64,000 nucleotides of DNA, from positions 734 through 64,733 of the forward strand of contig CAZTFC010000003.1 in NCBI GenBank assembly GCA_964612075.1. Direction: 5' to 3'. Below are positions 24,163-26,722 of the stretch, piece after piece. Position 1 is the first letter of the stretch. Every line of letters begins with the position of its first letter. The DNA is from an uncultured bacterium (GTDB taxonomy: Bacteria; Desulfobacterota; Deferrimicrobia; Deferrimicrobiales; Deferrimicrobiaceae). A program made the position numbers and the translations under genes. The notes below the pieces were generated by a model, which worked only from the letters and a program-made list of their open reading frames with translations, made no database searches and was not told the origin of the DNA.

Positions 24163-25371
24163 TCAGATCCTCCCGAGCGCCTGCTCGAGGTCGGCGATCA
24201 GGTCTTCCGTGTCCTCCAGCCCCAGCGCCAGCCGCACCAGGTTGTCCACCATGCCGATGTTGCGCTTGTACTCCTCGGGGTAGTCGAAGAACGACATCAT
24301 CGCCATCTGCGACACGAGGCTCTCGCTTCCGCCGAGACTGGGCGTGATCAGGAACAGCTCGAGGGAATCGATGAACTTCCTCGTTTCCCGGTCCCCTCCC
24401 TTGACCAGGAACGTGATCACGCTCCCGTATCCCTTCATCTGCTTCTTCGCGACCGCGTGGTCCGGGTGGGACGGTAGCCCAGGGTACCAGACCTTCTCGA
24501 CCTTGGGGTGGGACTCGAGCATCCGCGCGACCGCCAGCCCCGCGGTGTTGTGGTGCTCCATGCGCAGCCCGAAGGTCTTCAGGCCCCGCTCGAGCAGGAA
24601 GCAGGTGAAGGGGCCGGGTACCGCGCCGATCATCCGCTGCATGCGGTAGAGGTCATTCAGGAGATCGTGCCTCCCCATCGCAGCGCCGGCCAGCAGGTCG
24701 TTGTGGCCGCCGAAATACTTCGTGGCGGAGTGGAGGACGACGTCGATCCCCATATCGATCGGCTTGAGGTTGTAGGGCGACGCGAGCGTGGCGTCGATGA
24801 TGGTCATGATCTTGTGCTTTTTCGCCACCTTCACGACGCCGGGAAGGTCGATCACGCGCAGGTACGGGTTCGTGGGCGCCTCGGTGAAGACGATGTTGGT
24901 GTTCGGGCGGATCGCCTTCTCGATGGCCTCGGCGGACGGGTCCACCATGGAGACCGCGATACCGAACTTCGAGAGCGTGTTCTGCGCGAAGTCCCTCGTC
25001 TGGCGGTAGCAGTCGCTGGTGAAGATGATGTGGCCGTCCGGGCGCATGTAGGTGAGAAGCGTCAGGATGACGGCGCTCATGCCGGTGGAGAAGAGGATCG
25101 CCCGCTCGGCGCCCTCCAGCGCGGCGAGCTTGCGCTCGCACTCCTGCTGGGTCGGGTTGCCGTAGCGGCCGTATTCGTGCTCCCGGATCATCCGACCCTC
25201 TTTCTTCGCCTTCATGAACTCGTAGACGGCCGAGGTGTTCTCGAAGTAGTAGTTCGAGGTCTGGACGATCGGGGTGGAGACCGCGAAATGCGCCTTCGGG
25301 ACGCGGCCGAGGCCGTGGACGCCGAGGGTCGAGGGTTTCCAGCTCTTCGCGCGCTTCGATTTATCGGGCAT
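24163..25371 (-). CDS. metB: Cystathionine gamma-synthase-like PLP enzyme (plant-type signatures)
   Basis: [45 protein letters not shown] (PLP Lys), [20 protein letters not shown]. Confidence 0.85.
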
Positions 25372-26722
25372 TCGGCTGCCTCCTGGACTTCAGGGAGGTG
25401 TTCAGGGCGTGGTTCAGCGCCTCCTTGACGGCGTCGACGCTGGCGGGCACCTCGATGGGCCGGTTCGAGTGCTGGCTGGGGAAGCCCAGCGTGCCCTCGT
25501 GGTAGCCCACCTTGAAGTCGGCGAATTTCAGGCCATGGGCCGTGGAGATGACCACGACCTGCTCGGACTTGTCGATCTGCCCGGCCTTGAGCAGCTTGAT
25601 CAGGGCGGCCAGGGCGACCCCGGTGTGCGGGCAGTTGAACATCCCCGTCCGGTCGCCGAGCGCGGCGGCGTCGGCCAGCTCCTGCTCCGTGGCGTCCATC
25701 ACGACGCCGTCGAACGCTTTGAGCGTGCGGACCGCCTTCTCCACGCTCACCGGGTTGCCGATCTGGATGGCGCTGGCCAGCGTCTTCTGCGCCTGCACCG
25801 GCTCGAACGACTCGAACTTCTTCAGGTAGGAGCGGTAAAGCGGGTTGGCGTGCTGCGCCTGGGCCACCACGATCCGCGGCAGCTTGTCGATCAACCCGAG
25901 GTCCTTCATCATGAGGAGCCCGCTGCCGAGGGCGGAAACGTTGCCCAGGTTCCCGCCGGGGATGACGATGACGTCGGGCGCCTGCCAGTCGAACTGCTGC
26001 ACGATCTCGATGCCGACGGTCTTCTGCCCCTCGATCCTCAAGGAATTCATGGAGTTGGCCAGGTAGAGGGTCTCGTCCTTGGTGATCTCCTGGACCACGC
26101 GCATGCAGCCGTCGAAATCGGTATCGAGCGAAAGCACGAGGGAGCCGTTCGCGATCGGCTGGACGAGTTGGGCGATGGAGATCTTCCCCCGGGGCAGCAG
26201 CACGATCGACGGGATGCCGGCCGCCGCGCAGTAGACCGCCAGCGCCGCCGAGGTGTCGCCCGTGGAGGCGCAGACGACGGCCTGGATCGGCGCGCCCTCG
26301 CTGATCATCTGCTTGACCTGCGAGACGAGGACGGTCATGCCGAGGTCCTTGAACGAACCGCTGTGGGAGTTGCCGCAGAGCTTGACCCACACGTTCTCGA
26401 TGCCGATCAGCTTGCCGAACCGCTCCGCCCAGAAGAGGTTGGTGCTGCCTTCGTAGAGCGAGACGATGTTCTCGTCGGAGATGCCCGGGAGGATCCATTC
26501 CTTCTTGCCCCAGACGCCCGACCCGTAGGGCCACTGGTTGGACTTGTAGCGGTCCTCGAACAGCTTCATCCACGCACTGGCGTCCAGCGCGGCGAGGGCC
26601 TTCATGTCGTGCCGCACCTCGAGCAGCGAAGTGCACGATTCGCAGCGGTAAATGATCCTGTTCAGCGGATAGGTCGCCTTGCACTGCTGGTTGATGCACT
26701 GGAACCAGGCGTTGTATGCCAT
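25361..26722 (-). CDS. thrC: Threonine synthase (plant-type)
   Basis: [62 protein letters not shown]; RBS GGGAGG. Confidence 0.93.

Follow-up and report, generated by a model that had tools for sequence, protein, structure and literature searches.

A plant-type threonine synthase gene coupled to a cystathionine γ-synthase-like gene in bacteria, with recurrent fusion of the two

The thrC–CGS locus and its products

In the 64,000-nucleotide stretch analysed here (the window), from contig CAZTFC010000003.1 of an uncultured Deferrimicrobiaceae bacterium, two overlapping open reading frames (ORFs) occur on the minus strand, at 24163..25371 (402 aa) and 25361..26764. The longer frame contains thrC, which encodes a plant-type threonine synthase (TS). 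The other encodes a γ-replacement enzyme of the Cys/Met family dependent on pyridoxal phosphate (PLP), which we refer to as the CGS-like protein after cystathionine γ-synthase (CGS). The start of thrC is almost certainly the ATG at 26722–26720, because a GGGAGG ribosome-binding site (26731..26736, minus strand) lies 8 nt 5′ of it and because independent gene calls on near-identical contigs yielded a product of 453 aa. The gene thus spans 25361..26722, in agreement with the end at 26722 given in a preliminary description of this DNA. According to direct reading of the minus strand, its stop codon is the TAA at 25363–25361.

The two genes overlap by 11 bp (25361..25371, minus strand; ATGCCCGATAA), as the preliminary description had stated, and the start codon of the CGS gene falls within the last codons of thrC. 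An AGGAGG ribosome-binding site for the CGS gene (25379..25384, minus strand) lies inside the thrC coding sequence, 7 nt 5′ of the ATG at 25371. This arrangement is that of a two-gene unit with predicted translational coupling. The GC content at third codon positions was 0.93–0.94 in both genes and equalled that of the neighbouring genes; the pair therefore looks native to this genome. All of the ThrC and CGS peptides quoted in the preliminary description, including MSFFD...DNLVR, were found in the translations.

Profile searches assigned ThrC to PF00291 (PALP; E 3.7e-57), and the protein passed the NCBIfam thrC equivalog model TIGR00260 (216 bits against a cut-off of 167). Among solved structures, its top match was Arabidopsis TS1 (1E5X; 549 bits, E 9e-164), as compared with at most 187 bits for the bacterial TSs of M. 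tuberculosis, Aquifex, B. subtilis and Thermus and 62 bits for the E. coli-type TS. Identity to Arabidopsis TS1 was 57.5% over 426 aa and included the plant N-terminal domain from residue 54, whereas the shorter solved bacterial TSs aligned to ThrC only from about residue 90. The PLP lysine lies in GSFKDLG, aligned with Arabidopsis K163. These data strongly support the assignment of ThrC as a plant-type TS, as the preliminary description had proposed.

ThrC and Arabidopsis TS1 (1E5X, 2C2B, 2C2G) thus share the fold-type II PLP architecture, the PLP lysine and the N-terminal domain from residue 54, but the bacterial enzyme differs in several respects. It has no transit peptide, and it is encoded with, or fused to, a CGS. 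At positions 175–182 of the Arabidopsis enzyme (NRLRKMKR), ThrC has the unrelated surface segment KQMISEGA. In place of the first ∼53 residues of the mature plant protein, ThrC has a short segment bearing the motif CxxxxC...CxxC, comprising C9, C14, C27 and C30 (codons 9–30, window positions 26633–26698, minus strand). The motif was present in all 69 N-termini of the ThrC family that were examined. In the Arabidopsis segment aligned from residue 54, no cysteine stands opposite C27 or C30; C9 and C14 precede the alignment. The four-cysteine segment looks like a metal site of the zinc-ribbon type.

The CGS-like protein belongs to PF01053 (Cys_Met_Meta_PP; E 3e-128). It scored below every curated NCBIfam cut-off listed, and its relatives are named by NCBI only as "aminotransferase class I/II-fold PLP-dependent enzyme". 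Its closest solved structure was tobacco CGS (351 bits; next match, 300 bits), to which it is 44% identical, as compared with 37% for E. coli MetB (237 bits). With the tobacco enzyme (1QGN, 1I41) it shares the fold-type I Cys/Met PLP architecture, the equivalents of K261 and R423, E107–Y111 and Y163-R164-x-T166-R167. In the alignment, the PLP lysine in SATKY corresponds to tobacco K261 and the arginine of NLVR to R423; the residue numbers Y163, K261 and R423 used for tobacco CGS fit its PDB (Protein Data Bank) chain. The tobacco active-site entrance E107-Y-G-R-Y111-GNPT (107–115) is identical in the window protein (EYGRYGNPT), and D161-C-Y163-R-K165-T-R167 is matched at six of seven positions by DCYRQTR. 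Overall, 11 of 12 residues of the tobacco active-site entrance were identical, K165 being the one that differs.

The CGS-like protein was aligned with four references (tobacco CGS, E. coli MetB, MccB and a methionine γ-lyase, MGL), with eight members of its family and with representatives of clusters at 50% identity; of the 150 representatives listed, the 129 with lengths of 340–640 aa were used. After gap filtering, 142 sequences remained, from which distance-based neighbour-joining (NJ) trees, rather than maximum-likelihood trees, were built with 200 bootstraps. In 195 of the 200 replicates, the window family and tobacco CGS fell together in a clade of at most 45 of the 142 sequences that excluded MetB, MccB and the MGL. 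The exact 32-member clade was recovered in six replicates only, and the NJ tree did not place the window family as the sister group of the eukaryote subclade. Members of the clade shared with tobacco CGS are characterised by EYGRYGNPT (tobacco 107–115) and DCYR[K/R/Q]TR (161–167); sequences outside it mostly have D[VL]YGGT. Taken together, these comparisons lend moderate support to an affinity with plant CGS, one more distant than that of ThrC with plant TS.

Plant CGS carries a long N-terminal regulatory extension, the MTO1 region, which marks plant regulation and not catalysis. The alignment with the crystallised tobacco chain starts only at residue 28–30 of the CGS-like protein, opposite residue 74–76 of that chain, leaving no room in the 402-aa protein for such an extension. 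In this alignment, the MTO1 region is absent from the window protein.

Distribution and fusion of the pair

A scan at one genome per species found close relatives of the CGS-like protein in the genomes of 342 species, and 80 loci were kept for comparison. Complete genomes with the pair or its fused form include OY970295.1 and OY760142.1. The nearest relative, at 97% identity, was from the unclassified "bacterium UBA2219", followed at ∼83% by Deferrimicrobium-like and Deltaproteobacteria metagenome-assembled genomes. The remaining hosts were mostly Nitrospirota (Thermodesulfovibrionales, Dissulfurispiraceae), with a few bins of Verrucomicrobiota, Chloroflexota and Gemmatimonadota. A plant-type thrC lay immediately 5′ of the CGS gene in 75 of the 80 loci, in several phyla, and the arrangement is therefore not due to chance. 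Two of the other five loci have insufficient upstream sequence to judge. The remaining three (L072, L075 and L077) have ample upstream sequence and a CGS gene without an adjoining plant-type thrC, so the pairing is not universal.

No other neighbour was conserved in the 80 loci: the most widespread genuine family besides thrC occurred in six. A cluster of neighbours from seven loci was rejected as a spurious ORF on the strand opposite thrC. The conserved unit is accordingly thrC and the CGS gene alone.

The junction between the two genes was an 8-bp overlap in 45 of the 75 loci, an 11-bp overlap in seven and some other small overlap or gap in nine. In the remaining 14 loci (L010, L012, L013, L014, L022, L023, L030, L034, L041, L045, L054, L056, L060 and L079), no stop codon separated the two coding sequences, which were fused in one frame. 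The fused protein has ∼848 aa, and its TS and CGS parts are joined by a short basic linker, for example ...ALQKKGGKPMSKKSS.... On a complete chromosome of the Thermodesulfovibrionales, translation of L023:6660-9209 gave an uninterrupted TS–CGS protein of 849 aa. A database search with this protein returned more than 60 clusters of two-domain proteins of 846–857 aa (P0271–P0332), drawn from JGI, ENA, NCBI and Logan assemblies. Given this number of clusters, their independent sources and the L023 translation, the TS–CGS fusion is real and recurrent and is no assembly artefact. It was an unexpected result. The preliminary description had proposed a single operon; retention of the pair across phyla and its frequent fusion make the case stronger than was then claimed. 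The fusions are named at most "threonine synthase" in public records, and the second catalytic part is therefore overlooked.

CGS identity stayed at 72–83% across bins whose assigned phyla differ (Nitrospirota, Deferrimicrobium-like, Verrucomicrobiota, Chloroflexota and Gemmatimonadota, and for L012 and L030 even archaeal bins). This suggests that the module has spread horizontally, that bins were wrongly assembled, or both.

More distant relatives of the CGS-like protein occur in other settings. At L087:2678-5419, the gene of a bacterial relative that is 50% identical (P0121; EYGRYGNPT, DIYRRTR) lies directly upstream of a gene for an aspartate kinase carrying ACT domains, which places it in an aspartate-family biosynthetic setting. 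The gene context of four distant bacterial members of the CGS superclade (P0130, P0136, P0140 and P0147) was uninformative. In six longer proteins of 762–841 aa (P0122, P0123, P0125, P0139, P0152 and P0173), the query matched two separate stretches. P0122 consists of a CBL/CGL-like half and a plant-type CGS half (EYARYGNPT, HCYRRTR), an architecture that suggests a fusion of two transsulfuration steps.

O-phosphohomoserine as a possible common substrate

Plant CGS is an established user of O-phosphohomoserine (OPH), whereas most bacteria use O-succinyl- or O-acetyl-homoserine for methionine synthesis. TS uses OPH, the closest characterised relative of its partner is an OPH user, and the two are coupled or fused; the most economical reading is that both enzymes may draw on a shared OPH branch point. 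We put at about 0.6 the probability that the pair is an operon for two OPH consumers at the branch between threonine and methionine. ThrC would convert OPH to threonine. The CGS-like enzyme would exchange the phosphate of OPH for sulfur on the route to methionine, yielding cystathionine with cysteine or homocysteine directly with sulfide. Overlap or fusion of the genes would hold the competing enzymes at a 1:1 ratio, and the threonine/methionine split would then depend on enzyme kinetics, possibly with an effector, instead of on separate control of expression.

A candidate effector is S-adenosylmethionine (SAM). Plant TS is activated allosterically by SAM, which binds at the dimer interface, and, according to the alignment, the N-terminal domain implicated in this activation is largely present in ThrC. 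A broader proposal is that anaerobes, including many Nitrospirota, Deferrimicrobium-like bacteria and others, draw methionine and threonine from one OPH pool through plant-type, often fused, TS and CGS with a SAM-activated TS, and that they represent the prokaryotic counterpart, possibly even the donor lineage, of the plant switch. We consider this proposal speculative and, in its full form, rather improbable.

Several observations weigh against a shared OPH pool. The 44% identity of the CGS-like protein to tobacco CGS is modest, and of 14 signature residues of the eukaryote subclade, four are common to the window family and ten differ. The preliminary description's statement that this protein closely matches plant CGS was thus overstated, although its placement with tobacco CGS (195/200) and its EYGRYGNPT and DCYRxTR motifs bear out the affinity itself. 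Opposite tobacco K165, the window protein and the eight relatives aligned with it, nine family sequences in all, have Gln; many algal-like relatives have Arg. In tobacco CGS, K165 is reported to be linked to phosphate binding and specificity (Steegborn et al. 1999/2001). No SAM riboswitch or other methionine-linked element was detected upstream of the pair, either here or in eight related loci: no Rfam family reached its gathering score in the window or in those loci, or matched the thrC leader at a permissive E-value. No gene for ThrB, HomK or MetC was found within the window. Finally, fusions usually join sequential steps or subunits and not competitors for one substrate, and adjacency to thrC could be explained by co-regulation of the aspartate family alone.

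A variant of the OPH model is that the CGS-like enzyme is mainly an OPH sulfhydrylase, converting OPH and sulfide to homocysteine without cystathionine or MetC. Enzymes of the CGS family, including plant CGS, can accept sulfide, and such an activity would fit anaerobic habitats rich in sulfide. Most of the hosts are anaerobes, belonging to the Thermodesulfovibrionales, the Dissulfurispiraceae and Deferrimicrobium-like lineages. Moreover, no second Cys_Met_Meta_PP gene, a candidate for MetC, was conserved near the pair. However, metC could be located elsewhere in the genome, plant CGS prefers cysteine, and the sequence does not separate cysteine from sulfide as the nucleophile. We regard this variant as possible but doubtful.

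It is somewhat more doubtful that the CGS-like protein takes O-acetyl- or O-succinyl-homoserine as its substrate, like an ordinary bacterial CGS or sulfhydrylase, and that its gene stands beside thrC only through the frequent co-transcription of aspartate-family biosynthetic genes. The prevalence of acyl-homoserines in bacteria is in its favour, as are the limited identity to plant CGS, the Gln at the K165 position and the few residues shared with the plant subclade (4/14). In E. coli, moreover, metB is likewise in an operon with an aspartate-family gene, but the partner there is metL. MetB belongs to the same enzyme family and performs the same γ-replacement chemistry; it differs in having DYSRRGNPT and DCYGGSYR in place of the EYGRYGNPT and DCYRQTR of the window protein. 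The entrance motifs of the window protein match those of the OPH enzyme, K165 apart, and not the YGG type of the acyl-homoserine enzymes, and the protein groups with tobacco CGS, away from MetB, in the 195 bootstraps noted above. Recurrent physical fusion to the other OPH consumer also argues against an acyl-homoserine substrate. Nor was any metA- or metX-like gene found within the window or conserved near the pair in related loci, which likewise speaks against this reading.

A degradative role, as an MGL or a cystathionine γ-lyase, is very unlikely. The top NCBIfam match of the CGS-like protein was indeed the MGL model TIGR01328, and several MGLs scored ∼290 bits in the PDB search, but the 362 bits obtained with TIGR01328 fall far below its cut-off of 549.7. 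In addition, the Tyr-stacking segment reads CYRQTR as against LYGCT in two aligned MGL chains, the protein lies outside the MGL reference in the tree, and the enzyme to which it is fused in relatives, TS, is biosynthetic, which favours a role in biosynthesis.

The known bacterial route from OPH also involves a TS-family protein. Textbooks and a recent preprint have placed OPH-dependent methionine synthesis only in plants (CGS) and in some Streptomyces (MetM/MetO) (GapMind, September 2026 preprint). In the latter, OPH is turned into homocysteine with the help of a protein thiocarboxylate (Hasebe et al. 2024, cited by the GapMind 2026 preprint). The TS homologue of the MetM type is encoded with a gene for the MetO sulfur carrier and is preceded by a SAM riboswitch (for the riboswitch, PMC12172450). 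If the window pair uses OPH, the two systems would have in common a bacterial methionine route from OPH involving a TS-family protein. They would differ in the sulfur step: in Streptomyces, homocysteine is formed by the TS homologue MetM together with a sulfur-carrier protein, whereas the window TS looks like a true TS, would leave the sulfur step to an enzyme of the CGS family and has no gene for a carrier in its vicinity. That ThrC is instead a MetM-like homocysteine synthase whose CGS-like partner processes homocysteine is the least likely of the alternatives. In its favour, MetM is homologous to TS and is often given that name in annotation (GapMind 2026 preprint). Against it, ThrC passes the TIGR00260 model and has 57.5% identity to Arabidopsis TS1, an enzyme defined by biochemistry; no gene for a small sulfur carrier of the MetO type adjoins the pair, either in the window or among conserved neighbours; and no riboswitch lies upstream, the likeness to MetM having been judged by these features rather than by direct comparison with MetM sequences.

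In the open-access literature, neither a plant-type TS/CGS pair from bacteria nor a TS–CGS fusion was found described; subscription journals were not covered, and an earlier mention is possible. Plants are known to have both enzyme types and the branch point at OPH; the bacterial pair differs in lacking the plant extension, in the four-cysteine N-terminus of its TS and in being often fused. If the thrC–CGS module uses OPH, it would be a third OPH-dependent route to methionine, bacterial and fairly widespread, and annotation tools could fill methionine "gaps" in genomes without metA or metX. The module would also provide a simple soluble model of how flux is divided between threonine and methionine, either as two coupled genes or as a natural fusion. 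Finally, the strong likeness of ThrC to the plant enzyme makes a non-cyanobacterial origin of plant TS a testable question.

Neighbourhood of the pair

No other gene of threonine or methionine metabolism was found within the 64-kb window, where the neighbours encode two-component systems, UvrD, GatCAB, GlnE, QueC, NadE and others. A scan upstream of the pair for consensus promoters and terminators found nothing. Between the upstream gene and thrC is a perfect hairpin with a 14-bp GC-rich stem and a 6-nt loop (26776..26809, minus strand), ∼50 nt past the stop codon of the upstream gene and ∼55 nt before the thrC start. It is not followed by a T-run and is probably the terminator of the upstream gene. 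The predicted fold of the 148-nt thrC leader is far more stable than that of shuffled sequence (z = −4.25).

The product of the ORF at 26860–27636 (minus strand) is a protein of 258 aa that is rich in Gly and Pro, contains repeats of the motif L(S/T)PEQK and has no Pfam match. Its gene is divergent to those of a sensor kinase with HAMP and HisKA domains and a response regulator of the OmpR type (27712–29217 and 29225–29899, plus strand), and the protein may be a periplasmic, stress-type partner of this adjoining two-component system.

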